DNA from: Mycobacteriales bacterium
Lineage (GTDB): Bacteria; Actinomycetota; Actinomycetes; Mycobacteriales; SCTD01
Assembly (NCBI GenBank): GCA_038235705.1
Contig: JBBSTR010000001.1
Location: 43,541-107,540, forward strand
Reading direction: 5' to 3'
Length of the DNA: 64,000 nt
Shown: piece by piece, positions 14,892 to 30,406 of the stretch
Position numbering within the stretch: position 1 is the stretch's first letter
How the letters are laid out: each line of letters begins with the position of its first letter
Translations under genes and position numbers: made by a program
The notes under the pieces: model-generated
What the model was told of the DNA's origin: nothing
What the model saw: only the letters and a program-made list of their open reading frames with translations
Database searches by the model: none

Positions 14892-14956
14892 CATGATCAG
14901 CAGGGACTGGACGTCGTGACACACCGGCGTGTCACGACGACGTCACACTCTTGATC
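14892..14956 (+). repeat. Hairpin repeat element, copy A (50-nt core 14892-14941)
   Basis: The core is 44/50 identical to 30438-30487. Inner perfect 10-bp stem GTCGTGACAC/GTGTCACGAC (14913-14922/14929-14938) and outer stem GATCAG/TTGATC. Overlaps the last codons and stop of the Gfo-family gene. Confidence 0.75.
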
Positions 14957-16059: not shown

Positions 16060-17130
16060 TCAGGGTGCCCAAGGGAGCAGCAGGATGCGCGTGCTCCCGC
16101 CGTCCCGGAGCCGCTGGAAGGCGACTGCGACGTCGGCCAGTGGCACCTGGTCGGCAAGGAGGTGATCAAGGTCGAGGAGCCCGGACAGGTACAGGTTCTG
16201 GACCGCGCTGATGTCTTCGGTGGTGTAGCCGCGGGAGCCCGTGATCGAGACCTCCTTCCAGATGAGGTCGACCGATCGCAGACCGAGCGGTACGGCGGAC
16301 GCAGCCACCTGGACGACTCGCCCGCGCGGGCGGGCGCAGGCCACCGCGAGGGAAGCAGCCTGCGGTGCCTCCGTGCAGACGACGACCAGGTCGGCGCCGC
16401 CGTCGCTGAGCGCCTCGACCTCGTGCGCGGTGCTGCTGGTCACCTCCAGGACGTGGTCAGCCCCGATCCGCTCGGCGATCGTGCGGCTGCGCCGGCTACG
16501 ACCTACGGCGATCACTTCGGCACCCGCGGCCGCGGCCAGCTGGACGGCGCCGGAGCCGATGCCCCCGAGGCCCAGCACCACCACGTGCTCCCCGGGCTGG
16601 ACCCCGCCGACGCTGTGCAAGGCGTGGTGGGGCGTGGCCAGCGCATCGGTGAGGACGGCGAGCCGGTCGGCCGGGATGTGGCTGCGTGGGCGGACCAGGG
16701 TGCGGGCCGGTCTCACGACGAACCTCGCCAGCGCTCCGTCGACGTCGACGCCCATCCGGGTGACCGGTCCGAGGTGCGGCCAACCGCGCCGTGACCACCG
16801 ACCCTCGGGATCGCTGTCCAGGTAGTGCAGTGCTACCGGATCATCGATCCGCAGGTCGCTGTCGTCCGGCTGTTCGGGACCGAACCCGACCACCCGGCCC
16901 GCCGCCTCGTGCCCGGGGACCACGGGGAAGACGTCGAGGCCGAAGCCGCCGTCCTGCAGCAGCCGATCGGACCCGCACAGCCCGCATGCCTCGACCCGGA
17001 CGAGCACCTCGCCGGGACCGGGCTCCGGGCACGGCCGACCTTCCAGTCGCGGTGCCTCGCCCGGTCCGGCCAGCACGGCGACCAGGTTCTCTGCGCCGTC
17101 CGCACCGCCGGGGCAGGCCGTGTCAGTCAA
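16060..17130 (-). CDS. Zinc-dependent medium-chain alcohol dehydrogenase family protein
   Basis: Motifs CGLCGSDRLL and PGHEAAGRVV (catalytic Zn ligands) and GLGGIGSGAVQLA (NAD fold). The TTG start per the ORF track overlaps the upstream SDR stop by 8 nt, so the start is uncertain. Confidence 0.75.
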   Translation of the reverse strand: MTDTACPGGADGAENLVAVLAGPGEAPRLEGRPCPEPGPGEVLVRVEACGLCGSDRLLQDGGFGLDVFPVVPGHEAAGRVVGFGPEQPDDSDLRIDDPVALHYLDSDPEGRWSRRGWPHLGPVTRMGVDVDGALARFVVRPARTLVRPRSHIPADRLAVLTDALATPHHALHSVGGVQPGEHVVVLGLGGIGSGAVQLAAAAGAEVIAVGRSRRSRTIAERIGADHVLEVTSSTAHEVEALSDGGADLVVVCTEAPQAASLAVACARPRGRVVQVAASAVPLGLRSVDLIWKEVSITGSRGYTTEDISAVQNLYLSGLLDLDHLLADQVPLADVAVAFQRLRDGGSTRILLLPWAP

Positions 17131-17845
17131 TGAGGAAGCCCCCGTTGACGTCCATGACCTCGCCGGTGATGAACGACGCGTGCTCGGAGCAGAGGAACGC
17201 TACGGCGTGCGCGACTTCTGACGGCCTGCCGAGCCGTCCGACCGGGATGCTCGTGACCAGGTCACGCATGCCGTCGATCATGGGAGTGTCGATCATCGCC
17301 GGGGCCAGCGCATTGACGGTGATGCCGTGCGCCGCGTACTCCTTGGCGAGGCTCTTGGTGAGAGCCATGGCCCCGGCCTTGGCTGCGGCGTAGGCGCCCA
17401 CGTGCTTGGCGCCGCCGGTCTTGCCGGCGCTGGAACCGATCTCGACGATCCTGCCGTAGCCCTGGGACACCATGGCCGGCAGAGCCCTCTGCACCGTGAG
17501 AAACATTCCGGTGAGATTGACGTCGAGCACGCGTGACCAGGTGTCCAGCGACATGGTCTCGACGCTCTCGACGTGAAAGACCCCGGCCGCGCAGATCAGC
17601 AGCTCGACGCCGCCCAGCTGTCGTTCAACGAGCTCGAAGGCCGACGCGATGCTCTCTGAACTGGTCACATCCATCGTGACACCGACGAGGTCGTCCACCA
17701 CCGGCGGTCGTAGGTCGCCCACCGCAACTCTCGCGCCGTGGGCAGCGAGCAGTCGCGCGACCGATGCGCCGATCGCACCTCCCGCTCCGGTCACGAGGGC
17801 GACGCGTCCCGACAAGCCGCTGGAGATGTCTACGTCCGCTAGCAT
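17123..17845 (-). CDS. Short-chain dehydrogenase/reductase (SDR)
   Basis: 240 aa from the ATG at 17845. Motifs VALVTGAGGAIGASVA (TGxxxGxG) and YAAAKAGAMALTKSLA (YxxxK). The upstream 97 codons of the ORF-track entry are non-protein-like and were trimmed. Confidence 0.8.
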   Translation of the reverse strand: MLADVDISSGLSGRVALVTGAGGAIGASVARLLAAHGARVAVGDLRPPVVDDLVGVTMDVTSSESIASAFELVERQLGGVELLICAAGVFHVESVETMSLDTWSRVLDVNLTGMFLTVQRALPAMVSQGYGRIVEIGSSAGKTGGAKHVGAYAAAKAGAMALTKSLAKEYAAHGITVNALAPAMIDTPMIDGMRDLVTSIPVGRLGRPSEVAHAVAFLCSEHASFITGEVMDVNGGFLID

Positions 17846-17887
17846 GTGGAAACGATACCAGCCGTGGATCGACCAAGCGGAGGACCT

Positions 17888-18622
17888 GTGCCGAACCTGC
17901 CCGTCGTCGACCTGCAGGGCAAGCGTCTGCTCGTGACCGGGGCGGCCGGCGGGATCGGCCGGGCCGTGGCGTTGCGCGCCCGCGCTGCAGGCGCCCAGGT
18001 CTGGGCCACCGACGTGCGCGCCGGCGGGGCCGACGGGCTCACCGTGACGCCGTACGACCTGCGGGACGTTGATGGGCTCGACGAGCTGTGCCGGGGTGCC
18101 GCCCGCGAGATGGGCGGCCTGGACGGCCTCGTGCACGTGGCCGGGGTGATCGTGCGCCGCGACTCCATCGAGGAGGTCACCGAGGCGGACTGGGACCTGC
18201 AGACCGACGTCAACCTCAAGGCCACGTTCTTCCTGGACCGGGCCGCGGCCCGGGTGCTGGCCGAGGGCGGCGGGGGAGCGATCGTGAACTTTGCCTCTCA
18301 GGGCTGGTGGACCGGTGGCTTCGACGGGTCCGTCGTCTACTCGGCCGGCAAGGGCGGGGTGGTGTCCCTGACCCGCGGCCTGGCCCGTTCGCTGGCTCCG
18401 CAGGGGATCCGCGTCAACGCGGTGGCTCCTGGAGCGGTCGACACGGCCATGATGGAAGGTCTCAGCGACGAGGCCCTGGACGCCTTCTTGGCTCAGGTCC
18501 CGCTCGGGCGCATGGGGACCGCGGACGAGGTCGCCGCCACGGCGCTGTTCCTGGTCTCCGACGCCGCTGCCTACGTCACCGGGGCGACTCTGAACGTCAG
18601 CGGCGGACAGCTCATGTACTGA
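17888..18622 (+). CDS. Short-chain dehydrogenase/reductase (SDR), divergent from 17123-17845
   Basis: Motifs LLVTGAAGGIGRAVA and YSAGKGGVVSLTRGLA. The GTG at 17888 is preceded by GGAGGA (17879-17884). The ORF-track start at 17846 would leave no intergenic space. Confidence 0.75.
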   Translation: MPNLPVVDLQGKRLLVTGAAGGIGRAVALRARAAGAQVWATDVRAGGADGLTVTPYDLRDVDGLDELCRGAAREMGGLDGLVHVAGVIVRRDSIEEVTEADWDLQTDVNLKATFFLDRAAARVLAEGGGGAIVNFASQGWWTGGFDGSVVYSAGKGGVVSLTRGLARSLAPQGIRVNAVAPGAVDTAMMEGLSDEALDAFLAQVPLGRMGTADEVAATALFLVSDAAAYVTGATLNVSGGQLMY

Positions 18623-20039
18623 CCGGGCGAGGCGTCACGACGACGCCCTCGATCTCCAGGTGCTCGGCGACCTGCAGCAGCTCGTCGCCGACATGTCCGC
18701 GTACGAGGCAGGAGTGGTGCCCGGCGCCGGCCAGCACCCAGGCTCGCCAGACATCGGGTCCGGGCGTACCGCGAAAACGCAGCCAGGCGCTCGTCGCACC
18801 GGTGTGAAGGCGCTCGTCGCCGGTGACGTCTGCCTCCGCGGCGACGAGACGATGACCGTTGCGGGTGCGGCGCAGCGCTAGCACCGTGCAGGGCCCGACG
18901 GCCAGGTGGTGACGCGCGTTCAGGGAACCGGCCCACCAGGGGCTCGGGCCGACGACCGTCCTTCCCTGCGCCCATCTGAGGTCGTGCTCGCCGGAGTTCG
19001 CGAGGACCCAGAGATCGCTGATCGGGTCGTGGGTCTCGATCTCGTGATACCAGGAGGTGCCGGTCAGCAGCGAGCCGACGAGCATCGCGATGCTCGTCAG
19101 GATGTCGCCGGTACAGGTCCAGGGACAGCCGTGGCTCGTCGCGCTACCGAGTGCCAGGCACGGGGCGATCCCGATCGACGCCGAGCCTCGCACCTCGGGC
19201 GCGTGACAGCTGAGGCTCCCGGCGTCCAGCTCGTGGCGGCTCATCAGGGTCTGCAGGGCGACAGCCGCCCGTACGGCCCGGGGGGCGTCGTCGCTCTTCG
19301 TCTCGGGCCAGTCGTACGCCGCACCCTGCACCGACATCCAGGCCTCGACCTCAGGCCCGGTGACGTCGTCCATGCTGGAGCCCAGGGCAGACGCTGGCAG
19401 ACGCACCACCTCGAGCCCCAGACCCCGGTGCAGGTGGGCGTCGCTGTCATCGACGCTGGTGTAGCCGGGCATCGGCTCGCCGAGCCGGCCCACCCGTGCA
19501 CGACGCACGCGCGTCGCCACGGCCGCCGGACGCAGCGCTCCGGCCAGCTGCCCGTGCGTCGCAGCCGCAGCCGGGTCGCCCAGGACCAGGGCGAAGGGCC
19601 GGCCAGCGCTCACCAGGTCGCTGGTGACCATGGGGGTGCCGACGCTGGTGCCTCGTTGCACGATCTCGGCCTCGGTGACGGCCCCTTCGAGCTCGGACGA
19701 GCGCTCGCAGGACCAGACGACCACCGACACAGCCGGCAGAGCGGCCAGCAGCAGACCTGCCGCAGACGGGGGAGCAGCCATCGTCAGCAGCAGGAGCAGG
19801 ACGTCCGGCCGGGCTTGCTCCACCGACTCCCGTGCGGCGACGACCCCGTCGGGACCTTCCAGCACCTCGGCTGCCACCACGGCCCCGTGGTGGGACAGGG
19901 CCTGGACCGCGTCAGCGAGCAGGCGTTCCCGGTCGGCGCGCAGGTCGATGCCGGAGGCTGCCTCGAAGAAGTTCCAGTAGGGCATGACGACGGCGATCCG
20001 TGGAGTGATCGCGTCAGGCCCGTTCCCTCTGCCGTTCAC
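18612..20039 (-). CDS. L-arabinose/L-fucose isomerase-family protein (AraA-like)
   Basis: The C-terminus AWVLAGAGHHSCLVRG...LLQVAEHLEIE parallels E. coli AraA AWILAGGAHHTVFSHA...FAEMHDIE (from memory). The GTG at 20039 forms a GTGA overlap with the mutarotase stop; alternative GTG at 20051. Confidence 0.6.
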   Translation of the reverse strand: MNGRGNGPDAITPRIAVVMPYWNFFEAASGIDLRADRERLLADAVQALSHHGAVVAAEVLEGPDGVVAARESVEQARPDVLLLLLTMAAPPSAAGLLLAALPAVSVVVWSCERSSELEGAVTEAEIVQRGTSVGTPMVTSDLVSAGRPFALVLGDPAAAATHGQLAGALRPAAVATRVRRARVGRLGEPMPGYTSVDDSDAHLHRGLGLEVVRLPASALGSSMDDVTGPEVEAWMSVQGAAYDWPETKSDDAPRAVRAAVALQTLMSRHELDAGSLSCHAPEVRGSASIGIAPCLALGSATSHGCPWTCTGDILTSIAMLVGSLLTGTSWYHEIETHDPISDLWVLANSGEHDLRWAQGRTVVGPSPWWAGSLNARHHLAVGPCTVLALRRTRNGHRLVAAEADVTGDERLHTGATSAWLRFRGTPGPDVWRAWVLAGAGHHSCLVRGHVGDELLQVAEHLEIEGVVVTPRPVST

Positions 20040-20350
20040 CGAAGGTGCCACACCTCGGCGGCTCGAAGCAGGGCGCCGTCCGGGCCGGTCATGGTGTCGA
20101 TGATGTCGCCGAAGGACTCGGTCCAGCGCGCCCCGACCTCGGCCTCACCCATGCGCGCGAACACGGTGGCGACGTCCGGGACGCATTCCGCGTACCCGAC
20201 GACCAGCAGGTCTTTGCGGAACAGGGTGTAGTTCGTGTATCCGGCGGCACTGACCGCGTCGGCCATGTCGGGCCAGATCTCGTCGTGGCGCCGTTCGTAC
20301 TCCTGTTCCTGACCGGGCTTGAGGTGGATGAAGAAGCACAGGCGTTCCAT
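20036..20350 (-). CDS. L-rhamnose mutarotase-like protein (RhaM/DUF718 family)
   Basis: 104 aa, MERLCFFIHLKPGQEQEYERRHDEIWPDM...YTLFRKD, typical of RhaM-type mutarotases. ATGA overlap with the upstream gene stop. The rest of ORF 20036-20917 is R/P-rich and was trimmed. Confidence 0.75.
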   Translation of the reverse strand: MERLCFFIHLKPGQEQEYERRHDEIWPDMADAVSAAGYTNYTLFRKDLLVVGYAECVPDVATVFARMGEAEVGARWTESFGDIIDTMTGPDGALLRAAEVWHLR

Positions 20351-21438
20351 CAGCTGTTCTCCGTCTCGGGCGCGGGGGGTGAGGGGTTGCCACCGCAGGC
20401 GCGGGAGCCGATGGCCGCAGGACGCTGCAGGCCGACCCGTTCGTAGTAGGAGTCCGGTACGGCTGCCGGATCTTTGAACACCGTCCACGAGCACTTCTGT
20501 GGTGCCTCGCCGTCGGGGACGGGCCGGGGCGGGTCGACGGCTCGGACGGGATAGCCGAAGGCTCGCATCGGCATGATCTCGGTCAGCACGATGCAGTGCG
20601 CGCAGTAGTTGCAGACGCCGGGCTCGAAGTGGTTCCACGGCGCGGGTTCTTGCGTGAGCGGCCACTCGTACGGCGCCTGGTCGCGTGGCGGCGTCCCCTC
20701 GATGTCGTCGCCACGGACCTGCCGGCCGCCGGAGCCGCACGGGTCGAAGCGGAGGACGACCCGGTCGTCGGTCTCGGTCCACTCGATGTCGCCCCGGCGT
20801 CCGGGGCCGCAGAGGTGGCCGCGCATCGCCTCGAACGCGACGGTGAGGTTGAGCTTCATGGCGTCGGCCCAGTCGTGCTGATCGACGTCGAACACCGAGT
20901 AGCGGGCGTCGAACCACGGACGGAGGATCACGTCGTACATGTCACCGATCGCGCTCTCGCCGTGCCGGACGACGACCTCGTTCATCAGACCGCCGATGTG
21001 GTCGACGTCGCGATCGTGACACTGCCGCCACTGCTCGACGAGCTCGTCGACCGTCGCGGCCGAAGGATCCTCGATGACGCGGTCCGCGTGCGTGCGGACC
21101 CGGGCCCACTGCGTCGCGTGGTCCCAGGTGCGACCGTCCGGGTGGACCAGCAGATCGGTCAACCTGCGGTCGAGATCGGCGAGCGCCTCGGTCGACATCC
21201 CCCAGTCGACGAGCAGCGTACGAAGATCGCCGCTCCACTGGCGGTAAAGGTCGTAGCAGACCTTGGCCTCGACCAGGAAGTACTCGGTGAGTGCGGTGAG
21301 CCCAGGTCGATCCTCCGCGTCGACGGCACGCTGCATCAGGTGGTAGGTCGCCTCGGACTGCTCGTGCCAGCCGCCCTCGCGGACGGCCCGCCCGAGCACG
21401 TCCTGCCAGACGAACGGTCCCTCCAGCGGGGTCGTCAC
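20350..21438 (-). CDS. Uncharacterised protein with CxxCxxC motif (possible Fe-S or zinc protein)
   Basis: 362-aa ORF with GTGA and ATGA overlaps to both neighbours. Helical N-terminal half and Cys-containing C-terminal half (HLCGPG, FDPCGSGG, GVCNYCAHC, QKCSW). I recognised no family. Confidence 0.6.
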   Translation of the reverse strand: MTTPLEGPFVWQDVLGRAVREGGWHEQSEATYHLMQRAVDAEDRPGLTALTEYFLVEAKVCYDLYRQWSGDLRTLLVDWGMSTEALADLDRRLTDLLVHPDGRTWDHATQWARVRTHADRVIEDPSAATVDELVEQWRQCHDRDVDHIGGLMNEVVVRHGESAIGDMYDVILRPWFDARYSVFDVDQHDWADAMKLNLTVAFEAMRGHLCGPGRRGDIEWTETDDRVVLRFDPCGSGGRQVRGDDIEGTPPRDQAPYEWPLTQEPAPWNHFEPGVCNYCAHCIVLTEIMPMRAFGYPVRAVDPPRPVPDGEAPQKCSWTVFKDPAAVPDSYYERVGLQRPAAIGSRACGGNPSPPAPETENS

Positions 21439-22208
21439 GCCACCACCCCGCCGGGGTGCCGCTCGGCCACCGCGCTCTCGTACAGGGGCAGGACGATGTC
21501 GGCCTCACGCCGCAGCCGTGCATAGGTCGCCATGGCCTCGGCGTAGCTCTCACCGATGCCGAGGGCGATGTTGTCCTCCACGTTCTTGTAGGAGAAGGCG
21601 GAGTCGGTCGCGACGACCGTGCCGGCCGCGGTGTCGAACGTGACGGCGAGGGAGGAGCGGTGGTGCACCAGTGACTCCCACACCGAGCAACCGGGCACGA
21701 TCTGCTCGTCGCCCACGAGTCGCACGCGGTCCCGGGCCTCGAACAGCAGGAAGCGCAGGACGTCGTCAGGGACGAAGACCTCTCGCGGCAGGTGATGCGC
21801 GTGAGGGGGGGCCATGACGTCCTCGATCCAGCCCCGCCGGGACAGGACGATCTCGGCGTTCGGGAACAGGTGCAAGCCACCGAGGGTGTAGACCACGGTG
21901 GGAGTGAGGATCACGTGCGTGACCTCTTCCGGTGTGATCCCGAACCGTTCGAGGACCGCCGCGACCTGTTCGTCGTCGTCACGGGTGTACTGGACCCGGC
22001 CGCTCGGGTGGAACTGTGCCCATCCCGCGTTGAGCGTGCTGAGGTCTGCCGGCGGGCCGGTGTTCACCAGGATCGTGTGCTCACCGTTTCGGGCCAGCAC
22101 CATCCAGAACGTGCCGTCGAACCACTGCTCCCAGCCCGTCATCCAGAACACCTCTGGTGCGGGCATGGGCATCCGGCCCATGCTGGCGACGTTCACCGAG
22201 AAGGCCAT
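21435..22208 (-). CDS. Metallo-beta-lactamase-fold (AHL-lactonase-like) protein lacking the HxHxDH motif
   Basis: 257 aa from the ATG at 22208. EEVTHVILTPTVVYTLGGLHLFPNAEIVL aligns to the MBL pattern D.VilTHlHfDHaGG..fP.A with TPTVVY replacing HxHxDH. The upstream part of ORF 21435-23366 overlaps the permease gene in another frame and was trimmed. Confidence 0.65.
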   Translation of the reverse strand: MAFSVNVASMGRMPMPAPEVFWMTGWEQWFDGTFWMVLARNGEHTILVNTGPPADLSTLNAGWAQFHPSGRVQYTRDDDEQVAAVLERFGITPEEVTHVILTPTVVYTLGGLHLFPNAEIVLSRRGWIEDVMAPPHAHHLPREVFVPDDVLRFLLFEARDRVRLVGDEQIVPGCSVWESLVHHRSSLAVTFDTAAGTVVATDSAFSYKNVEDNIALGIGESYAEAMATYARLRREADIVLPLYESAVAERHPGGVVA

Positions 22209-22237: not shown

Positions 22238-23293
22238 TCACGAGCCGGCGCTGAAGCGCTGGCGCAGCTGGTCGAACGAGACGGCCAGGATGAGCAGCGT
22301 CCCGCGGGCGACGTCCTGCCAGAAGCTGTTGACGTTGAGCAGGACGAGGCCGTTGTTGAGCACCCCGATCAGCACTAGGCCCAGGACGGTCCCGAGCACC
22401 GTCCCGCGACCGCCGGAAAGGCTCGCCCCTCCGAGGACCACCGCGGTGACGACGGTGAGCTCGAGCCCGGTGGCGGCGACCGGTGAGGCCGCTGACAGCT
22501 GGGAGGTAAGGATGAGCCCGGAGACGGCCACCGCCAGCCCGGACAGCACGAACGTGATGATGAGCACGCGGCGGGTGCGGATGCCGACCAGCCGGGCCGC
22601 CACCGGGTTGGCCCCGATCGCGTACAGCGACCGGCCGAAGACGGTGAAGCGCATGCAGAGCGCACCGACCGCGACGATCAGGGCAAAGATGATCACCGAC
22701 AGCGGGATGCTCAGGAACGGTCGAGACGTCCCCAGGGCCGAGAACCCGGTGACGATCGTCGTCTGTCCGTCTGCGAGCAGCTGGGTCAGGCCGCGGAGGA
22801 CGGCAAGCGTCCCCAGGGTGGTGATCAGGGAGTTCACGCCGACGACGTTGATGAAGAAGCCGTTCACCGCCCCGATCGCGAGCCCTGCCACCACCGCCAG
22901 CACGATCGCCAGACCGAGACCGCGTGGCGCCACCTGCGTCGCCAGCAGGACACCGCAGAAGGCCGCGCCCGAACCCACCGACAGGTCGACCTGACCGGCG
23001 ACGAGCAGCATCGTCGCCGGCACGGCGATGATCCCGGTCACCGCGATCGCGGACAGGATGTTGAGGATGTTGTTGGTGGTCAGGAAGTAGGGGCTCTTGA
23101 CCGCGAACAGCACGACGAGCGCTGCGAGAACCACCAGCAGACCGGCCAGCTCGGGCACGCTGCGACCACGGGGCGCCGGGTTGACGACGGCCCCCCCGGC
23201 CGTGGTCGACGGGGACGGGTCGACCCGGCCGGTGGCCGGGGCCTCTTTGGACAGCTGCACCGTTCCGCCGTCGTCCTGGGATGCCTGGGTCAT
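22238..23293 (-). CDS. Sugar ABC transporter permease (RbsC/AraH-like)
   Basis: 351 aa from the ATG at 23293 (ATGA overlap with the ATPase stop). Multi-TM with FLTTNNILNILSAIAVTGIIA... typical of the monosaccharide (CUT2) permease family. Confidence 0.85.
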   Translation of the reverse strand: MTQASQDDGGTVQLSKEAPATGRVDPSPSTTAGGAVVNPAPRGRSVPELAGLLVVLAALVVLFAVKSPYFLTTNNILNILSAIAVTGIIAVPATMLLVAGQVDLSVGSGAAFCGVLLATQVAPRGLGLAIVLAVVAGLAIGAVNGFFINVVGVNSLITTLGTLAVLRGLTQLLADGQTTIVTGFSALGTSRPFLSIPLSVIIFALIVAVGALCMRFTVFGRSLYAIGANPVAARLVGIRTRRVLIITFVLSGLAVAVSGLILTSQLSAASPVAATGLELTVVTAVVLGGASLSGGRGTVLGTVLGLVLIGVLNNGLVLLNVNSFWQDVARGTLLILAVSFDQLRQRFSAGS

Positions 23294-24786
23294 GCGACGT
23301 CGCCTCCTGAGGCCGAGGTGAGAGCGGCCGAGGTGACCCCGGCGCCGGTGAGGTGGTCGACGACACGTCCGCGTGCCATCACCAGGACACGGTCCGCCAG
23401 CTGGACGACCTCTTCGTAGTCCGAGGTGGCGATCAGCACCGCGAGCGACTCGTGCTCGGCGAACCGACGCAGGGTGCGGTAGATGTCGGAACGGGCGCCG
23501 ACGTCGACGCCGCGGGTCGGCTCCACGAGCAGCAGCACCCGTGAGCCACGCTCGAACCAGCGCGCGAGCAGGACCTTCTGCTGGTTGCCCCCTGACAACG
23601 TCGCGATGGGCTGTCCCGGCTCGTCTCTCGACCGGATGGAGAGCGCCTCTCTCCACCGCGACCAGGCGGCCCGCTCCGCCTTGTGCCCCAGGAAGCCTCC
23701 GCGCGACATCCTCGGCCAGGAAGGTGCGGCCAGGTTCTCCGCGACCGGGCGGATCGCGAGGAGCCCGGACTGCTTGCGATCGGCCGGGAGGAAGCCCAGC
23801 CCTTGATCGACCGCTGTCGCGGGCCCGTCAGGTCGGTAGTCGACGCCGTCGAGGCGCATCGTGCCGGCGGTGATCGGGTGCAGCCCGAACGCTGCCTCGA
23901 CGACCTCGGCGGTGCCCGAACCGATCTTGCCGTAGAGCGCGACGACCTCGCCCGCGCGGACCTCGAGGTCGACGTCGTCGAACAGGGCGCCAGAGCTCAG
24001 ACCGTGCACCTCGAGCATGCTCGGCCCAAGGCCCTCCGGGGCATTCGGCCGGGTCACCCCGTCGGCCTCGCGGCCGATCATCGCGGTGACCATCTGCGTC
24101 CTGCTCACCTCGCTCACGGCGGAGTCGAGCACCCCGACGCCGTCACGGAGCACCTGGACACGGTCCGCGATCGCCGTCACCTCGTCCAGCCGGTGGGTGA
24201 TGTAGATCATCGCCACCCCGCGGGAGCGCATCTGCTCCATGGCCCGGAACAGCTGGTCGACCTCGCTGCTCGACAGGGCCGCCGTGGGTTCGTCCAGGAT
24301 GAGGATGCGTGCCTCGTCGGAGAGGGCTCGCGCGATCTCGACGAGCTGACGCTCGCCGATCCGGAGGGACTCCACCGTCCGGCTCACGTCGAACTCCGCC
24401 CCCAGCTGCGCGAGAGCCGCCTCGGCCCGCTTTCGCATGCTCGACCAGGACACCAGCCCGCGACGCGCCGACCAGCGCCCCAGCGAGATGTTCTCGGCGA
24501 CGGTGAGCGGACCGGCGTCGTTGAGCTCCTGGAAGATCATTCTGATGCCGAGGGCACGCGCCTGGACGGGGTCGTGCTGACGGACCGGCTCACCTTCGAC
24601 CAGCACGGCCCCGTCGTCGGCGGTGTAGTCACCGGCGATGATCTTGACCAGCGTGGACTTGCCCGCCCCGTTCTCCCCGAGCAGCGCCAGGACTTCGCCC
24701 TGGTCGATGTGCAGGTCGACGCCGTGCAGGACCGGTACGCCCGCGAAGCCCTTCCGCACCGACTGCAGCTCGAGGAGGGACGGCAT
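23290..24786 (-). CDS. Sugar ABC transporter ATP-binding protein (fused two-domain, RbsA-like)
   Basis: 498 aa from the ATG at 24786 (ATGA overlap with the SBP stop). Walker A GENGAGKSTL, a second degenerate P-loop GKIGSGTAE, and signature LSGGNQQKVLLARW. Confidence 0.9.
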   Translation of the reverse strand: MPSLLELQSVRKGFAGVPVLHGVDLHIDQGEVLALLGENGAGKSTLVKIIAGDYTADDGAVLVEGEPVRQHDPVQARALGIRMIFQELNDAGPLTVAENISLGRWSARRGLVSWSSMRKRAEAALAQLGAEFDVSRTVESLRIGERQLVEIARALSDEARILILDEPTAALSSSEVDQLFRAMEQMRSRGVAMIYITHRLDEVTAIADRVQVLRDGVGVLDSAVSEVSRTQMVTAMIGREADGVTRPNAPEGLGPSMLEVHGLSSGALFDDVDLEVRAGEVVALYGKIGSGTAEVVEAAFGLHPITAGTMRLDGVDYRPDGPATAVDQGLGFLPADRKQSGLLAIRPVAENLAAPSWPRMSRGGFLGHKAERAAWSRWREALSIRSRDEPGQPIATLSGGNQQKVLLARWFERGSRVLLLVEPTRGVDVGARSDIYRTLRRFAEHESLAVLIATSDYEEVVQLADRVLVMARGRVVDHLTGAGVTSAALTSASGGDVA

Positions 24787-25925
24787 CACGAGCAGTTCTG
24801 GCCGGCGGTCGGGTAGAAGTCGGTGATGTTCTTGCTGTCCAGCACCTGGTGCGGGACGAGCAGCTCCTTCGGGATGGTCTTCCCCTTCGCCGCGTCGATG
24901 AGGTAGGGGACGCCGATCTTCCCGTACTTCTCGGGGAAGTAGGCCGTGTCGGCGACCCAGTTCGGGTTGTTCTTGATCTCGCACCACGAGGACGGGTCGG
25001 CCCCCTGCCCGGAGACGAAGATGCTGTCGCCGCGGTTCGCCGTCTTGGCGGCCGCCACGGCCCCGAGGATCGAGTCGTCGTTGATGCCGACCACGATGAT
25101 CTTCTTGGCGCCCGGCAGCGAGGTGAGGACGTCGGCGAACTTGGTCCGCGCACCGTCGAGCGCTCCTCCACCGTCCACGACGCGGGCGTTCGTGATCTCG
25201 CCGCAGACCTCGCTGAAGCCCTTGCGGTAGCCGCCCATGCGCGCGTCGTTGACGGCGCCTGCAGCCGGCTGCTCCATCGAGACGTAGGCGTCGTACTTGC
25301 AGTCGAACTTTGCCTTGGCGTAGTCGCCCACGGCCTTGCCGGCGAGGTAGCCGGCGCGGTCGTTGCTGGCACCCATGAACGCGATCTGACAAGGCTGCTG
25401 CTCGATGTCCACCGCGATCACGGGCACCTGCGGACCCTGGGCGCAGATGGCCGAGGAGACCTTCGCGTCGACCTGGAAGTTCAGGTAGGCCTGAACGCCC
25501 TGGGTCTTGAAGCTCTGGGCGCAGGCGAGCGCCTTGGCGCCGTCGAGCGCGGAGTCGCAGACGATCAGATCGGCGCCTGCGCCCTTCGCCTCGGCCTTCA
25601 TCGAGTCGGTCACCAGCTTGGAGAACGGGACCTGCGAGTCGCCGAGGGCGATGAAGCCCAGCTTGAGCCCGTCGCCGCTGCCGGGGACCGCGTCTCGGAA
25701 CGCCACCGTGCCCGGCGCGTCAGCGCCGGCTGCGTCGGGGCTCGCGGAGGACGAGGGTGTGGCGGAGGTGCTGGGCGCCTCCGAAGACGGCACCGACGGC
25801 GCCGACGTGGCGGGCGTCGCGGTCGTCCCGGCACTGCTCCCGCAGGCGGCCAGGACGGCCACCCCGGTCAGGAGCGCGAGCCCTCGGGCCCCGGGCAGCA
25901 GCGCCCGTGCACGGCTGAGCGACAT
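24786..25925 (-). CDS. Sugar ABC transporter substrate-binding lipoprotein
   Basis: The ATG at 25925 is preceded by AAGGA. Signal plus lipobox LLTGVAVLAAC, a Ser/Thr/Ala/Pro linker, then a periplasmic-binding-protein type I-like fold. Confidence 0.8.
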   Translation of the reverse strand: MSLSRARALLPGARGLALLTGVAVLAACGSSAGTTATPATSAPSVPSSEAPSTSATPSSSASPDAAGADAPGTVAFRDAVPGSGDGLKLGFIALGDSQVPFSKLVTDSMKAEAKGAGADLIVCDSALDGAKALACAQSFKTQGVQAYLNFQVDAKVSSAICAQGPQVPVIAVDIEQQPCQIAFMGASNDRAGYLAGKAVGDYAKAKFDCKYDAYVSMEQPAAGAVNDARMGGYRKGFSEVCGEITNARVVDGGGALDGARTKFADVLTSLPGAKKIIVVGINDDSILGAVAAAKTANRGDSIFVSGQGADPSSWCEIKNNPNWVADTAYFPEKYGKIGVPYLIDAAKGKTIPKELLVPHQVLDSKNITDFYPTAGQNCS

Positions 25926-25945
25926 GGTGATCGTCCTTTCTCTCG

Positions 25946-25965
25946 GACTGGAATGCTTTCCAGTC
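25946..25965. promoter_or_regulatory. Candidate LacI-family operator (palindrome) in SBP 5' leader
   Basis: GACTGGAA-TGCT-TTCCAGTC has 8-bp perfect arms. The inner TGGAATGCTTTCCA resembles the generic LacI-family TGNAANCGNTTNCA except for a GC centre. Confidence 0.4.
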
Positions 25966-26140
25966 ACGGCCAGTCCTAGTGCCTTGCGTCACGTGTGTCA
26001 ACCACCCGAGTCGTGTCGTGTCGTCGCAGTCACCCTTCTGACGCGCGAGTTCGGGGAGCGTGTCAGGGCGCCTTTTCGCGAGGTGCCCTGGCGGGGTAGC
26101 GCATCATCCACCGAACGGCTAGGGTCGCGGCAACCGATCC

Positions 26141-26175: not shown

Positions 26176-27345
26176 ATGACAGTCAGCGACCAGACGCAGC
26201 CGTCCGTCCCGTCAGGGTCCTCTCGTGGTGCCGGTGGGCTGACCATCACCCGGCTCGAGACGATCGGGATGGTCGCGCCGCTGGGCCGGACGTTCCAGGG
26301 CAGCCACTACCGGATGACCCACCGGGCGACGTTGATCATCCGGCTCCACACCGCCGAGGGCATCGTTGGCGAGGCCTACGTGGGGGACGAGGACGCCTCG
26401 CTCGCCGCGATCACGGCGATCGTGGAGAACGAGATCGCCCCGGTTGTGGTGGGCGAGGACGCGTTCGGTGTCGAGCGCTGCTGGCAGCTCGCGTACGGCG
26501 TCACCTTCGACATCCTGCGCGACCGCCGGCTGGGCCTGGTCGCGCTGGCGGCCCTCGACACCGCGATCTGGGACGCGATCGGCAAAGCGCTGGGACAGCC
26601 GTTGTGGCGCCTGTGGGGCGGCTACCGCCGCAGCCTGCCGATGATCGCGATCGGGGGCTACTACGGGGAACCGCTCGGCGCGATCGCGGACGAGATGCAG
26701 TCGTACCGGCAGCTGGGTCTGGCCGGCGTCAAGTTCAAGGTCGGTGGAGCGTCGCCGGCTGTCGACGCCGACCGGGTCCAGCGGGCCCGGGAGGCAGCCG
26801 GGGACGACTTCATCCTGGCGATCGACGCGAACCAGGGCTACACGGTGGCCCAGGCCGTGGAGCTCTGCCGACGGCTCGACGGGGTCGGGGTCCGTTGGTT
26901 CGAGGAGCCGGTCCTGTGGCACAACGACCGGCGCGACCTGCGCGACGTGCGCCAGCAGGGCGGGATCCCGGTGTGCGCCGGGCAGAGCGAGGTGAGCCCC
27001 AGCGGCTGTCGTGACCTGATGGAAGCCGGAGCCATCGACGTCTGCAACTTCGACGCGTCCTGGTCCGGCGGCCCGACCGCCTGGCGTCGTGCTGCTGCCC
27101 TGGCCACGACCTACAACGTGCAGATGGGCCACCACGAGGAGCCACAGGTGTCCTCCCACCTGCTGGCCAGCCAGGCGCACGGCACCTACGCCGAGTGCTT
27201 CCACCCGGAGCGGGACCCGTTCTGGTGGAACCTGATCGCTAACCGTCCTCCGCTCGTCGACGGGCAGATCACCCTGTCCGACGCTCCCGGTCTGGGCTGG
27301 CAGCTGGACTGGGACTACGTCGACAGATGGCGCGTTCGCGCGTGA
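26176..27345 (+). CDS. Enolase-superfamily (mandelate racemase subgroup) acid-sugar dehydratase
   Basis: 389 aa from the ATG at 26176 (RBS AGGAG). Motifs KFKVGG (KxK) and metal-ligand motifs AIDANQGY, WFEEP and CAGQSE. The upstream part of ORF 25507-27345 is antisense to the SBP gene and was trimmed. Confidence 0.8.
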   Translation: MTVSDQTQPSVPSGSSRGAGGLTITRLETIGMVAPLGRTFQGSHYRMTHRATLIIRLHTAEGIVGEAYVGDEDASLAAITAIVENEIAPVVVGEDAFGVERCWQLAYGVTFDILRDRRLGLVALAALDTAIWDAIGKALGQPLWRLWGGYRRSLPMIAIGGYYGEPLGAIADEMQSYRQLGLAGVKFKVGGASPAVDADRVQRAREAAGDDFILAIDANQGYTVAQAVELCRRLDGVGVRWFEEPVLWHNDRRDLRDVRQQGGIPVCAGQSEVSPSGCRDLMEAGAIDVCNFDASWSGGPTAWRRAAALATTYNVQMGHHEEPQVSSHLLASQAHGTYAECFHPERDPFWWNLIANRPPLVDGQITLSDAPGLGWQLDWDYVDRWRVRA

Positions 27346-27371
27346 GGGTGCTGCTGCGAGACCATGCGTCC

Positions 27372-28403
27372 ATGACCCCGTCCCCGAGCTCCCTGCGCAC
27401 GCCGACCAGCCGTCCGGTGATGAAGCAGGTGGCCGACCGCGCGGGCGTGGCCCTGTCGTCGGTCTCCCGGGTGCTGTCCGGGCACCCGGACGTCAGTGCG
27501 GTGATGCGCAACCGGGTGCTCGACGCCGTGGCCGCGCTCGGCTACGAGCCGGACCGGTTGGCACAGAGCCTGCGCACCGGGGCCACCATGAGCGTCGGGG
27601 TGGTCGTCGGTGACATCAGCAACCCGTTGATGGCCCAGATCGTCCTGGGGGCCGAGATGCGGCTGCGGGACGGGGGCTACTCCTCGCTGCTGACCAACTC
27701 CGGGAGCGACCCCCGACTGGACGTCGAGCACGTGCGTCTGCTGCAGCAGCGCCGGGTGGACGGGATGCTCCTCTCGCTCAGCGACGAGGAGGACCCAGGT
27801 GTCGCCGACGCCGTCGGTCGCCTGGACGTGCCCATCGTCCTGCTCGACCGGCAGCTTGCCGGACAGGGATCGGCGGCGGCGCTGTCCGACCATGCGGCGG
27901 GGATCCAGGCCGCAGCGCAGGAGCTCGCCGACCTGGGGCACCGGCGCGTCGGCCTGGTCAACGGCAGCCCTCGGGTCAGGCCCTCCCGGGAGCGGGCGAC
28001 GGCTCTGCGCAAGGTCTGTCGGTCGACGGACATGCAGTGCCGCGTCCGTGCAGCGGCCTACACCGCCGAGCACGGCTACCAGGCGACGATCGACCTGATG
28101 CGCGCCGAGGACGCACCCACCGCGCTCATCGCCGGCGGCAACCAGATCCTCGTCGGGGTGCTGCGCGCCCTGCGCGAGCTCGGCCTCACGGTTCCTGGTG
28201 ACGTCAGCCTGGTCGCCTGCGACGACGTGCCGCTGGCGAGCTATCTCGACCCACCGATCGCCACGATCAGGCGCGAACCCGGCCAGATCGGCCGGGTTGC
28301 TGCCGAGCTGCTGCTCGAGCAGCTGCGCGGGGAACCGGTCCGTTCCCAGACCCTGCCCACCACCTTCGCGAAGACCGAGAGCGTCAGGCCCCCGCGCGCC
28401 TGA
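27372..28403 (+). CDS. LacI-family transcriptional regulator
   Basis: HTH KQVADRAGVALSSVSRVLSG followed by a periplasmic-binding-like effector domain. The start is uncertain (ATGs at 27327, 27372 and 27420, none with a strong SD). Confidence 0.8.
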   Translation: MTPSPSSLRTPTSRPVMKQVADRAGVALSSVSRVLSGHPDVSAVMRNRVLDAVAALGYEPDRLAQSLRTGATMSVGVVVGDISNPLMAQIVLGAEMRLRDGGYSSLLTNSGSDPRLDVEHVRLLQQRRVDGMLLSLSDEEDPGVADAVGRLDVPIVLLDRQLAGQGSAAALSDHAAGIQAAAQELADLGHRRVGLVNGSPRVRPSRERATALRKVCRSTDMQCRVRAAAYTAEHGYQATIDLMRAEDAPTALIAGGNQILVGVLRALRELGLTVPGDVSLVACDDVPLASYLDPPIATIRREPGQIGRVAAELLLEQLRGEPVRSQTLPTTFAKTESVRPPRA

Positions 28404-28436
28404 GCTCTGCCCAGACCACCACCGGAAGGATTCGAC

Positions 28437-29426
28437 GTGACCACCAACCAGGAACGACTGACGCTCCAGCAGGGTGCGCCGCCGGACGCGGAGGCCCTGC
28501 TCGCGTCGATGCTGCGGATCCGGCTGTTCGAAGACGAGATCATGGGCCTGTTCACCAAGCAGCTCGTCCGCGGCAGCACCCATCTGTGCCAAGGGCAGGA
28601 GGCGGTGACGGTCGGCGTTGCCTCGAGCCTGCGCGACGGCGACACCGTTGTGTGCACCTACCGCGGTCACGGTGCGGTCCTCGCCATGGGTGCTGAGCTG
28701 GACGCCAGCTTCGGGGAGATCATGGGTCGCAGCGGGGGGCTCTGCAAGGGGCGCGGCGGATCGATGCACCTCACTGATGTCGCCCGCGGCGTCCTCGGCT
28801 CGAACGCGATCGTCGGCGCGCACCTGCCGATCGCCGTCGGCGCGGCCCTGTCGGCCCAGCACCTGGGCACCGGCGCGGTCAGCGTCGCGTTCTTCGGCGA
28901 CGGAGCCACGAACATCGGTGCCTTCCACGAGAGTCTCAACATGGCCGGGATCTGGAAGCTGCCGGTGCTGTTCGTCATCGAGAACAACCAGTACGGGGAA
29001 TACAGCCCGATCGCGTCGACCACGCCGATCGCACGGCTCGCCGACCGCGCCGCGTCCTACGGGATGCCCGGGGTGCAGGTCGACGGCAACGACGTCGTGG
29101 CCGTGCGCGAGGCCGCTCGCGAGGCGGTGGACAGGGCCACGGGCGGGGAGGGCCCGACGCTGCTCGAAGCACTGACCTACCGGCACGGCGGCCACTCCCG
29201 CGCCGATCCCGGCGCCTACCGGCCGCCGGGCGAGCTGGACAGCTGGTTGGAGCGCGACCCGATCACGGCGCTGGAGCGGGCGATGCGAGCCGGTGGAGGA
29301 GCCGCCGAGACGCGCATCGAGCAGGTGCGTGAGGCCGTCCGGACCGACGTGGCCCAGGCCCTCGAACGGGCGCTGAGCTGGCCGGAACCCGACGCCGAAG
29401 AACGCTTCGAGGACGTGTACGCATGA
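28437..29426 (+). CDS. TPP-dependent 2-oxoacid/acetoin dehydrogenase E1 component, alpha subunit
   Basis: 329 aa with TPP-binding motif FFGDGATNIGAFHESLNMAGIWKLPVLFVIENNQYG. Confidence 0.85.
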   Translation: MTTNQERLTLQQGAPPDAEALLASMLRIRLFEDEIMGLFTKQLVRGSTHLCQGQEAVTVGVASSLRDGDTVVCTYRGHGAVLAMGAELDASFGEIMGRSGGLCKGRGGSMHLTDVARGVLGSNAIVGAHLPIAVGAALSAQHLGTGAVSVAFFGDGATNIGAFHESLNMAGIWKLPVLFVIENNQYGEYSPIASTTPIARLADRAASYGMPGVQVDGNDVVAVREAAREAVDRATGGEGPTLLEALTYRHGGHSRADPGAYRPPGELDSWLERDPITALERAMRAGGGAAETRIEQVREAVRTDVAQALERALSWPEPDAEERFEDVYA

Positions 29427-30406
29427 GCGAAAAGATCAACTACCGGCAGGTCATCGCGCGCGCGCTCGCCGACGCGATGGACGAGGACCCGACCGTCCTG
29501 CTCCTCGGTGAGGACGTGGGTGCCGCAGGCGGCGCGTTCAAGACGACGGCAGGTCTGTTCGAACGGTTCGGCCCGACCCGGGTCCGTGACACGCCCATCT
29601 CCGAGCAGGCGATCGTCGGTGCGGCGCTGGGCGCCGCCATGACGGGACTGCGACCGGTCGCCGACATCATGTTCGCCGACTTCGCGGGCGTCTGCTTCGA
29701 CCAGATCGTCAACCAGGTGGCCAAGCAGCGCTACATGTCCGCCGGGCAGGTCACCGTCCCGCTGGTGATCCGGATGGCCAACGGGGCGGGGGCAGGTTTC
29801 GCGGCCCAGCACTCGCAGGCCACGGAAAACTGGTTCCTCAACGTGCCCGGACTCAAGGTGGTCGTCCCCGGCACCGTGGAAGACCTCTACGGTCTGCTCC
29901 GCTCGGCGGTCCGGGACGACAACCCGGTGATCGTCTGTGAGCACAAGAACCTGTTTGCGCTCAAGGGCGTCGTTCCCACGGGCGACGCGGCGTTCGTCCC
30001 GATCGGGAAGGCGAGCGTCGTACGCCGGGGCAAGGACCTGACGATCGTCGCCACGCAGCAGATGCGGCACCGTGCGGTGGAGGCCGCCGAGATGCTCGCG
30101 GAGGAGGGGATCGAGGCGACCGTGATCGACCCACGCACGCTGATCCCGTTCGACGACGCCACCGTGGTCGCGAGCCTCTCGGAGACCTCTCGTCTGCTGG
30201 TGGTGCAGGAGTCCCCGCCCGGCGGCAGCTGGGGCGCGAGCCTGGTCTCACGCATGGTCACGGAGCACTTCGAGGTGTTCGACGCGCCCCCCGCCCTGCT
30301 CAGCGCCGACGAGACGCCGGTGCCGTACGCCGCCGTCCAGGAGGCCGCTTGGCTGCCCACCGCAGAACGCATCGCCGACCAGGCGCGCCGGCTGGTCGCC
30401 TACTGA
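29423..30406 (+). CDS. TPP-dependent 2-oxoacid/acetoin dehydrogenase E1 component, beta subunit
   Basis: 327 aa with ATGA overlap to the alpha subunit. RVRDTPISEQAIVGAALGAAMTGLRPV is typical of E1-beta. Confidence 0.85.
   Translation: MSEKINYRQVIARALADAMDEDPTVLLLGEDVGAAGGAFKTTAGLFERFGPTRVRDTPISEQAIVGAALGAAMTGLRPVADIMFADFAGVCFDQIVNQVAKQRYMSAGQVTVPLVIRMANGAGAGFAAQHSQATENWFLNVPGLKVVVPGTVEDLYGLLRSAVRDDNPVIVCEHKNLFALKGVVPTGDAAFVPIGKASVVRRGKDLTIVATQQMRHRAVEAAEMLAEEGIEATVIDPRTLIPFDDATVVASLSETSRLLVVQESPPGGSWGASLVSRMVTEHFEVFDAPPALLSADETPVPYAAVQEAAWLPTAERIADQARRLVAY

Follow-up and report, generated by a model that had tools for sequence, protein, structure and literature searches.

The window, that is, the whole stretch of 64,000 nucleotides that was analysed, carries a set of sugar-related genes around one 362-aa ORF, hereafter the target, which was delimited from the ORF list and its translation (Table 1). 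The target touches both neighbors. At the upstream junction, a GTGA combines its GTG (21438-21436) with the TGA stop (21437-21435) of the 257-aa gene, and at the downstream junction its own TGA (20352-20350) and the ATG of the RhaM gene (20350-20348) share one A, which gives a 1-nt TGATG overlap. An earlier sequence-only reading of this DNA had described an ORF of this size overlapping its neighbors at both ends; the ORF and the GTGA start are as described, but the stop is TGATG and not ATGA. The same reading placed the target between an MBL-fold gene and a RhaM-like mutarotase. The mutarotase is confirmed by its Pfam family, whereas the label 'MBL-fold' goes back only to weak lactonase similarity of the 257-aa product. 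The complete sugar ABC importer that it saw upstream is indeed there, with binding protein, ATPase and permease all present. Scans of this high-GC DNA for promoters and terminators gave nothing informative.

Table 1. Positions in the window of the target, of the genes around it and of the codons for its conserved residues
Feature	Position	Strand	Remark
Target gene	20350-21438	-	362 aa, GTG start
RhaM-family mutarotase-like gene	20036..20350	-	104 aa; PF05336 6e-20; TIGR02625 2e-12, below cutoff
Gene upstream of target	21435..22208	-	257 aa; no Pfam match; AiiA/AttM-lactonase-like, weak (2e-9)
AraA/FucI-superfamily isomerase-like gene	18612..20051	-	479 aa; weak PF11762 (Arabinose_Iso_C)
SDR	17846-18622	+	
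SDR	17123-17845	-	
Zn-dependent medium-chain alcohol dehydrogenase	16060..17130	-	Pfam ADH_N + ADH_zinc_N
Gfo/Idh/MocA dehydrogenase	14932-16026	-	
Ribose-type sugar ABC importer	22238..25967	-	
Importer permease	22238-23293	-	AraH-like, 1e-65
Importer ATPase	23290-24786	-	AraG-like, 4.7e-134
Importer binding protein	24786-25967	-	Peripla_BP_4
Divergent unit	26176..30406	+	
Enolase-superfamily acid-sugar dehydratase-like gene	26176-27345	+	
LacI regulator	27327-28403	+	
TPP-dependent E1 alpha	28437-29426	+	
TPP-dependent E1 beta	29423-30406	+	
Region coding the conserved putative metal site	20491..20739	-	
C234 codon	20737-20739	-	
C276 codon	20611-20613	-	
Y278 codon	20605-20607	-	
C279 codon	20602-20604	-	
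H281 codon	20596-20598	-	
C282 codon	20593-20595	-	
C316 codon	20491-20493	-	

The names of the neighboring genes should be read at superfamily level. The best NCBIfam model for the 479-aa isomerase-like protein is the sulfoquinovose isomerase SftI (3e-13; 49 bits, cutoff 700), followed by AraA (2e-6; 27 bits, cutoff 622), so that by its sequence the protein is a distant relative of the AraA/FucI superfamily only. The Zn-dependent alcohol dehydrogenase (Zn-ADH) is closest to IolM, scyllo-inosose 3-dehydrogenase, again below the cutoff. Similarities of the transporter, lactonase and RhaM genes to RbsB, AraG, AraH, L-fucono-lactonase and RhaM are likewise sub-threshold and single out no substrate sugar. 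The E1 alpha/beta pair of the divergent unit is not accompanied by an E2.

Long chance ORFs are frequent in high-GC DNA, and several overlap the target in other frames; the target itself might then be a spurious or decaying ORF. However, at least 500 full-length homologues with 46-90% identity were found across phyla, and they share its motifs. Its fold is predicted with confidence, its operon position and coupling are conserved, and the antisense ORFs that overlap it cluster merely as its shadows. This conservation refutes a chance origin, to which we leave a practically negligible probability, and the target gene is real.

The family to which it belongs is large and was previously unannotated. 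It comprises 818 clusters at 50% identity (E <= 1e-3), mainly from Actinomycetota and Chloroflexota, and every source name in it is 'hypothetical protein'. A profile search of genome contigs found a close relative encoded in about 320 of 185,579 species genomes. Among the carriers are Spongiactinospora sp. 9N601 and MAGs placed in Microcella and Gulosibacter. The target matches no family of Pfam or NCBIfam at E <= 10, and thus no characterised housekeeping family. Against PDB sequences the single sequence likewise had no match at E <= 10; with a profile, the sole hits were de novo helical repeat designs, which were discarded as compositional noise. When 44 diverse family members were compared with Pfam, just single unrelated matches appeared (E >= 0.012). 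The earlier description of the protein as uncharacterised therefore stands. Many subfamilies exist, together with short and tandem forms, and 17 of 85 loci carry two paralogues, a diversification typical of enzymes.

The structure predicted by AlphaFold (AF2) for the whole target is confident (pLDDT 91.9, pTM 0.90), and the C-domain modeled separately reached pLDDT 83.9. Two domains are predicted, a helical N-domain (residues ~24-207), as had been expected for the first ~200 residues, and a small Cys/His-rich C-domain (~210-350). In Foldseek searches of both models against the PDB, no fold relative was found (TM < 0.3), the best matches being a de novo design (E = 4.7e-3) and one at E = 1.0. 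The predicted shape is unlike any solved structure. One helix, with the motif WRxCHDRDVDH, had suggested an HD-domain or diiron protein. The motif of HD-domain hydrolases and oxygenases such as MIOX, H...HD...D, is not matched: the target has just H141-D142 and D146, all in one helix, and the orthologue alignment holds no invariant His upstream of H141-D142. Since, in addition, Pfam gave no HD match and Foldseek returned no structure of an HD-domain protein or of MIOX, this idea was rejected.

All four Cys motifs pointed out from the sequence (HLCGPG, FDPCGSGG, GVCNYCAHC and QKCSW) are present in the target, and they differ in conservation. Alignment of 26 orthologues (46-74% identity) gave 83 invariant columns, in which Arg, Asp, His, Tyr and Trp are frequent. 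In a diverse alignment of 44 sequences, C234 and Y278 are conserved in 100%, H281 and C316 in 95%, H208 and D142 in 93%, C282 in 89% and C279 in 86%. The conserved set thus consists of C234, C279, C282 and C316 together with H281, H208, Y278 and H141/D142, and it contains just one CxxC. Within the Cys cluster, conservation is lowest at C276, with which CxxCxxC begins (75% Cys); among 202 sequences this position is variable, replaced by P, S, G, L, H, K or A in many lineages. In the same 202 sequences, residue patterns indicate that C279 and C282 were lost jointly in about seven lineages. Most homologues have V, S or F in place of C210 (HLCGPG).

These patterns bear on whether the target could be an Fe-S redox protein with a [4Fe-4S] or [2Fe-2S] cluster, acting as an electron shuttle with neighboring dehydrogenases or in the manner of an Fe-S hydro-lyase. 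The sequence-only reading had taken CxxCxxC plus a remote Cys as a [4Fe-4S] ligand pattern. This argument is weakened by the variable C276 and does not hold for the family: C210 is not conserved either, and neither Fer4 nor any other Fe-S Pfam model matches at E <= 10. In the close subfamily, five clustered Cys including C-x2-C-x2-C are retained, and this much is shared with the ferredoxin-type [4Fe-4S] motif (CxxCxxC...CP), but the target family has no CP motif and no matching fold. Further support for a redox role comes from the neighbors. Dehydrogenases are the most constant ones family-wide, FixABCX/ETF genes follow immediately after a distant short form, another short form shares its locus with ferredoxin-domain proteins, and one tandem form adjoins DUF362. 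On the other side, the ETF context was seen only once and the hosts are mostly aerobes, although the latter is a weak argument. In the AF2 model, C234 (FDPCGSGG) follows a beta-hairpin, C279 and C282 (YCxHC) lie at the start of a long helix, and C316 lies at the start of a strand. A motif at the N-terminus of a helix, placed after a beta-hairpin Cys, is common in Zn sites of zinc-finger architectures. On balance we regard an Fe-S protein as unlikely, and a Zn site with four Cys ligands could suit the conserved Cys set no less well than an Fe-S cluster. Known zinc sites (PF08882, treble-clef/zinc-ribbon) combine a hairpin Cys, a CxxC at a helix N-terminus and a remote Cys; the secondary structure around the four conserved Cys of the target would suit such a site, and their arrangement may be comparable, as judged from the model. 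However, the target has just one CxxC knuckle and a far larger, conserved helical domain than these modules, and neither PF08882 nor zinc-finger models match it at E <= 10, nor does Foldseek.

An indication of function is given by gene neighborhoods in other genomes. In total, 87 loci were compared; 57 long loci were searched for AraA-like genes by tblastn, and ORF clusters were counted in the 42 loci with full flanks. Of the 57 long loci, 53 have an AraA-like gene within 10 kb of the target homologue; in 30 loci it is the immediate neighbor, in divergent orientation. By ORF clusters, the AraA/FucI-like isomerase is the most constant partner (37/42), followed by Zn-ADH (32/42), which is often encoded directly downstream of the target homologue. 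SDR (29/42), RhaM (24/42), MR_MLE (20/42) and E1 (13/42) follow. A lactonase is found in 27 of the 42, as one of three alternating, non-homologous types: an Amidohydro_2 protein similar to L-fucono-1,5-lactonase (1e-31), a PTE-like protein or an AiiA-like protein. No aldolase, kinase or FAH-family protein is among the recurrent neighbor clusters. Co-occurrence with sugar genes, which the sequence-only reading had put forward as a check, is thus borne out, with a shift in the ranking of partners: the AraA-like gene, together with Zn-ADH, is the strongest, whereas the mutarotase is weaker and the 257-aa MBL-like gene is present in only ~3-5 of the 87 loci and lies next to the target homologue in a few (L001 and L007). 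The near-constant isomerase-like and alcohol dehydrogenase neighbors suggest that the target probably performs a step in sugar breakdown.

The tight AraA-like pairing can also be read in favor of a non-catalytic accessory. Such a protein might deliver metal to the AraA/FucI-like isomerase or, more generally, to neighboring metalloenzymes, help to assemble them, form a structural part of them or regulate them. Nearly all recurrent neighbors are metalloenzymes (AraA-like, Zn-ADH and the PTE, Amidohydro_2 or MBL lactonases), and the short forms have MetE-like and acetone-carboxylase-like metalloenzymes beside them. Moreover, a metal fully ligated by four Cys has no open coordination site, so that the Cys cluster may be purely structural, a point that also counts against the enzyme reading given below. 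Against this stands the lack of an AraA-like gene near all short forms and in four full-flank long loci, which weakens the idea of a dedicated subunit. Known metallochaperones are usually small or GTPases, and the target has no nucleotide-binding motif and no such family match in Pfam or NCBIfam. For a regulator it lacks a DNA-binding domain, and the locus already has one of the LacI family. The 83 invariant positions over 360 aa, the subfamilies and the paralogue pairs are also more enzyme-like. An accessory role is, in our estimate, slightly less probable still than an Fe-S protein.

The reading we prefer, at a probability of about 0.42, is that the target is a metalloenzyme of a new family acting on a keto-sugar or keto-acid intermediate. 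Metal binding, an enzymatic role, a substrate class and a type of reaction are what we infer in this proposal. The target would be a soluble metalloprotein in which the long helical N-domain carries the small C-domain. C234, C279, C282 and C316 may jointly ligate a single metal centre of the Zn(Cys)4 or the Fe-S type. Next to it, H281, H208, Y278 and H141/D142, together with many invariant Arg, may make up a pocket that accepts an anionic substrate with a carbonyl group, to judge from their conservation. The enzyme would work in an oxidative, non-phosphorylative (deoxy)sugar pathway with the AraA/FucI-like isomerase, Zn-ADH and lactonase, and its substrate would be a keto-sugar or keto-aldonate made by a dehydrogenase or the isomerase. 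Such a pathway would otherwise lack a kinase, an aldolase and a FAH-type hydrolase. The enzyme might decarboxylate a beta-keto acid, dehydrate its substrate or cleave a C-C bond; in about half of the loci a dehydratase role is less necessary, since enolase-superfamily dehydratases are already encoded there. No similarity to a characterised enzyme that would support catalysis was found in Pfam, NCBIfam or the PDB. Of the earlier suggestion of an unassigned, possibly metal- or Fe-S-dependent step in a sugar pathway, the sugar-gene context and the lack of a known family remain, without the Fe-S motif argument.

Known systems offer partial parallels. The trios of hexuronate catabolism (UxaC/UxaB/UxaA and UxuB/UxuA) place an aldose-ketose isomerase and an NAD-dependent dehydrogenase beside a protein that needs a metal, UxaA being Fe/Mn dependent, and the present module, with its isomerase-like gene and its putative metalloprotein, resembles them, but this is an analogy of pathway logic only. 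Neither the sequence nor the fold of the target resembles UxaA, UxuA or UxaC, the isomerase of its operon is AraA/FucI-like and not UxaC, and the module continues with neither a KDG kinase nor an aldolase. Non-phosphorylative L-fucose/L-rhamnose pathways use a dehydrogenase, an Amidohydro_2 lactonase, an enolase-superfamily dehydratase, an SDR and a FAH hydrolase or aldolase. RhaM, SDRs, a lactonase-type gene and an MR_MLE dehydratase also occur in the window and in many related loci, but FAH hydrolase and aldolase are missing among the recurrent neighbors of target loci. To our knowledge, the known pathways of this kind contain no AraA-like isomerase, Zn-ADH or protein of the target family.

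If the target has enzymatic activity, a widespread sugar-catabolic module, whose carriers are soil, freshwater and sponge-associated Actinomycetota and Chloroflexota, contains a reaction that has yet to be assigned, and enzymes would gain a new fold for metal binding. The set of AraA-like protein, target, Zn-ADH and lactonase is a small system that can be tested directly in vitro.

A more specific version of the metalloenzyme proposal draws on the relatives outside this module. Family variants are spread over diverse catabolic operons, in nearly every case next to dehydrogenase genes, and short forms are found in carboxylase, ETF and MetE-like operons. A short form lies within two types of ATP-dependent carboxylase operon, which hints at beta-keto-acid or ketone chemistry; the carboxylase link consists of two to three independent observations, and the short forms differ among themselves in their surroundings. 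The target family might then be a new fold class of metalloenzyme that catalyses carboxy-lyase-type or other C-C/C-O cleavage on beta-keto (3-oxo) acids or keto-sugars in a so far undescribed, kinase- and aldolase-free (deoxy)hexose route, while the short relatives serve ketone-carboxylase systems. The route would run from aldose via lactone, aldonate and keto-aldonate to a chain-shortened ketose, which would then meet the AraA-like isomerase. We consider this version doubtful, and less probable than either the Fe-S protein or the accessory. In acetophenone carboxylase of Aromatoleum aromaticum, ApcE (epsilon) is a 34-kDa, poorly conserved extra subunit (PMC5214803); the gene order there differs from that of the carboxylase operon holding the short form. 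If the target proved to be an enzyme, several hundred 'hypothetical proteins', including the forms in carboxylase and ETF operons, would gain an annotation. One short member is encoded directly beside a gene for the acetone carboxylase gamma subunit (Acetone_carb_G, PF08882) and between Hydantoinase A and B genes, a link that is genomic only.

The target, a protein with a Cys/His-rich C-domain, gave zero matches at E <= 10 against Pfam, NCBIfam and PDB sequences. Across 5.8 billion proteins, a search through a word index still found at least 500 homologues over the full length, with 46-90% identity, every one of them unnamed or 'hypothetical' and none with a Pfam domain. When 1.84 billion cluster representatives were searched exhaustively with a profile, 818 clusters matched at E <= 1e-3, 142 of them also at E <= 1e-30. 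A profile made from 44 diverse members found no PDB relatives, only de novo helical designs, and a Pfam scan of all 44 gave scattered noise only. By the tests run, the target is also outside the ferredoxin, HD-domain, zinc-finger and acetone-carboxylase-gamma families. Its description as uncharacterised in the sequence-only reading is thus upheld, and as far as the searches here can see, the family is categorically new at the levels of both protein family and fold. A chance ORF is excluded.

The target gene is tightly coupled to its neighbours on both sides, as had been claimed. Its GTG overlaps the TGA of the upstream gene (GTGA), and its TGA has one base in common with the ATG of a 104-aa RhaM-family gene; the latter junction reads TGATG, so that the ATGA given earlier was slightly off. 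Upstream on the same strand is a complete ribose-type ABC importer (Peripla_BP_4 binding protein, AraG-like ATPase and AraH-like permease). Downstream are RhaM, the AraA/FucI-like gene, SDR, Zn-dependent alcohol dehydrogenase (Zn-ADH) and a Gfo/Idh/MocA oxidoreductase. In a divergent unit are genes for an enolase-superfamily dehydratase-like protein, for a LacI regulator and for the TPP-dependent subunits E1 alpha and E1 beta, with no E2 gene. Two SDR genes stand back to back on opposite strands, and their assigned start codons abut at 17845/17846. Such an arrangement would give no room for a promoter between them. One of the two starts may be mis-assigned.

Coordinates of the target and neighbouring genes in the window
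Feature	Position	Strand	Remarks
Target ORF	20350-21438	minus	362 aa, GTG start
257-aa gene, upstream of target	21435-22208	minus	no Pfam match; weakly AiiA/AttM-like
AraA/FucI-like 479-aa gene, downstream of target	18612-20051	minus	
SDR gene	17123-17845	minus	start as assigned
SDR gene	17846-18622	plus	start as assigned
TPP-dependent E1 alpha and beta genes	28437-30406	plus	divergent unit

Related loci were taken from exact-protein look-ups with precomputed Pfam calls (7 loci) and from one genome per species (80 loci). The one-genome-per-species scan found 320 stretches encoding a relative. Carriers belong to the Acidimicrobiia, Thermoleophilia (Gaiellales, Solirubrobacterales), Actinomycetes and Chloroflexota (Limnocylindria), and in a few cases to Burkholderiales and Acidobacteria; several are sponge symbionts. 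In tblastn with the window's proteins as queries, 53 of the 57 loci that are 15 kb or longer have an AraA-like gene within 10 kb, and it adjoins the target with divergent transcription in 30 loci. Unbiased clustering of all ORFs, counted over the 42 loci that have 8 kb or more of flank on both sides, found AraA-like genes in 37, Zn-ADH in 32 (often immediately next to the target), SDR and ABC ATPase in 29 each, any lactonase-type gene in 27, RhaM in 24, MR_MLE in 20, AP_endonuc_2 in 19, Gfo/Idh/MocA in 18, and E1 alpha and E1 beta in 13 each. Co-occurrence with sugar genes in other genomes, the absence of which had been named beforehand as a refutation, was thus found. The sugar-pathway link proposed for the target holds, and weight moves from the mutarotase and MBL-like genes to the isomerase-like gene and Zn-ADH. 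Three unrelated families alternate as the lactonase, namely Amidohydro_2 (similar to L-fucono-1,5-lactonase, 1e-31), PTE-like and the AiiA-like 257-aa protein, which is a classic mark of a conserved reaction step. The smallest recurring set, in Acidimicrobiia, is a divergent AraA-like gene, the target, Zn-ADH and PTE-lactonase. Aldolases, sugar kinases and FAH hydrolases do not appear among the recurrent neighbour families from ORF clustering. Two target paralogues, sometimes adjacent, occur in 17 of 85 loci (L007, L008, L011, L019, L025, L035, L057 and L074 among them), and it is possible that they form heteromers or have two specificities. In L007, copies of 374 and 347 aa stand on either side of the 257-aa gene.

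The 257-aa protein is weakly like AiiA/AttM MBL-fold lactonases (2e-9, far under cutoff). By eye, its expected HxHxDH region reads THVILTPTVVYTLGG, and the canonical metal motif seems to be absent. Among the loci examined, its homologues adjoin the target only in L001 and L007. The AraA/FucI-like protein is likewise uncharacterised. About 68 related loci encode homologues of it, most without a Pfam call. In NCBIfam it scores best with the sulfoquinovose isomerase SftI, at 49 bits where the cutoff is 700; its kinship with AraA and SftI is distant and at superfamily level only.

Among 26 orthologues of 46-74% identity, 83 columns are invariant, including C61, H141-D142-R143, D146, H208, C234, N269-H270, C276, Y278, C279, H281, C282 and many Arg (target numbering), and C316 is Cys in all except one. 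C210, the Cys of the HLCGPG motif listed in the sequence-only reading, is variable there. In the diverse 44-sequence alignment, conservation is 100% for C234 and Y278, 95% for H281 and C316, 93% for H208 and D142, 89% for C282, 86% for C279 and H141, and 75% for C276. Residue patterns in 202 sequences agree; at position 276, Cys gives way to P, S, G, L, H, K or A, and C279 and C282 are lost jointly in about seven lineages that keep C234 and C316. Thus, the family hallmark is C234, YCxHC (C279, H281, C282) and C316, not CxxCxxC, and the conservation pattern does not back the specific [4Fe-4S] argument made earlier. Metal dependence itself is probable from the conserved Cys/His motif. One Cys is right behind a hairpin, the CxxC is at a helix N-terminus, and one Cys is at a strand start, a setting common in many Zn(Cys)4 sites. 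We infer that C234, C279, C282 and C316 bind a metal, as a Zn(Cys)4 or four-Cys Fe-S site.

Short forms of about 250 aa are without one inserted helical segment and retain the LGRxxR hairpin, HD helix, E...H208, FDPCGSGGR, YCxHC and CxW. Their profile gave 688 further proteins, all hypothetical and without Pfam match. Their contexts are unlike those of the long form. One is immediately 5' of FixABCX/ETF genes (L088, 967-5246). This context, together with the five Cys found in the target's close subfamily, would suit an Fe-S redox or electron-transfer protein, a role that we consider unlikely for the target; the conservation pattern does not back its CxxCxxC form. Another is flanked by acetone-carboxylase gamma and Hydantoinase_B genes, behind Hydantoinase_A (contig of family protein P0218), and a third is right behind BCCP, biotin carboxylase and PYC_OADA carboxyltransferase genes, preceded by two SDRs (L173, 5601-9747). 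In 10 metagenomic loci, a short form is immediately 5' of a MetE-like gene (Meth_synt_2, 8e-25); the MetE-like protein is stand-alone, and its gene starts about 5 bp behind (L136-L138, L143, L145, L150, L151 and others). SDR adjoins the short form in 26 of 80 loci, and other neighbours are class-III aminotransferases, acyl-CoA dehydrogenases and E1/E2/E3 genes. Tight pairing with the AraA-like gene and closed Cys4 coordination would also be expected of a non-catalytic accessory or metal-delivery factor for AraA-like and other metalloenzymes, a role that we likewise find unlikely. A dehydrogenase neighbour is the sole constant across contexts, and the family's behaviour is that of diversified catabolic enzymes, not of one protein's dedicated partner.

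The window operon has mutarotase, SDRs, lactonase and enolase-superfamily dehydratase in common with non-phosphorylative L-fucose/L-rhamnose pathways. However, their terminal aldolase or FAH hydrolase is missing, and the AraA-like isomerase, Zn-ADH and target are extra. UxaC/UxaB/UxaA has a similar logic of isomerase, dehydrogenase and third metalloprotein, without homology. The target has a confident predicted fold, a clustered Cys4, His and Tyr motif and many invariant Arg, Asp and His, and its loci almost always pair it with isomerase-like and alcohol dehydrogenase genes in operons that import sugar and hydrolyse lactone. Tentatively, with a probability of roughly 40%, we take it to be a metalloenzyme of the pathway acting on a keto intermediate. 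A putative polar pocket adjacent to the metal site would transform a carbonyl-bearing, probably anionic intermediate from the dehydrogenase or isomerase. Any single reaction type is much less probable. Decarboxylation of a 3-keto-aldonate would fit the short forms in two kinds of ketone/oxo-acid carboxylase operon; dehydration is another candidate; and retro-aldol or hydrolytic C-C cleavage would supply the missing bond-breaking step. The epsilon subunit of acetophenone carboxylase is poorly conserved (PMC5214803), and its relation to the target is possible.

Tandem-duplicated forms of 500-560 aa are among the family representatives. Such forms (P0169, 498 aa; P0195, 549 aa, adjoining a DUF362 gene; P0260, 564 aa; loci L090 and L091) have two complete core modules per chain, which suggests that the functional unit is a dimer. 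The AraA/FucI-like gene is doubled in L029, L030, L036, L047, L053, L058, L067 and L076. E1 alpha/beta genes (acetoin/pyruvate dehydrogenase-like) recur in the window, L001, L004, L007 and others, and E2 is missing beside them in the window and L001; this suggests that an alpha-hydroxyketone or oxo-acid intermediate is cleaved in a TPP-dependent step. A Pfam-free protein of about 505 aa, a further unannotated part of the sugar clusters, adjoins an enolase-superfamily gene in 9 related loci (e.g., L002, 4189-5706, minus; L004, 935-2458, plus). In L045 (14637-19696), from a sponge-associated Acidimicrobiia genome, genes for a full corrinoid methyltransferase set (URO-D-like, B12-binding, RACo activator and pterin-binding proteins) come after the target/Zn-ADH/PTE module.
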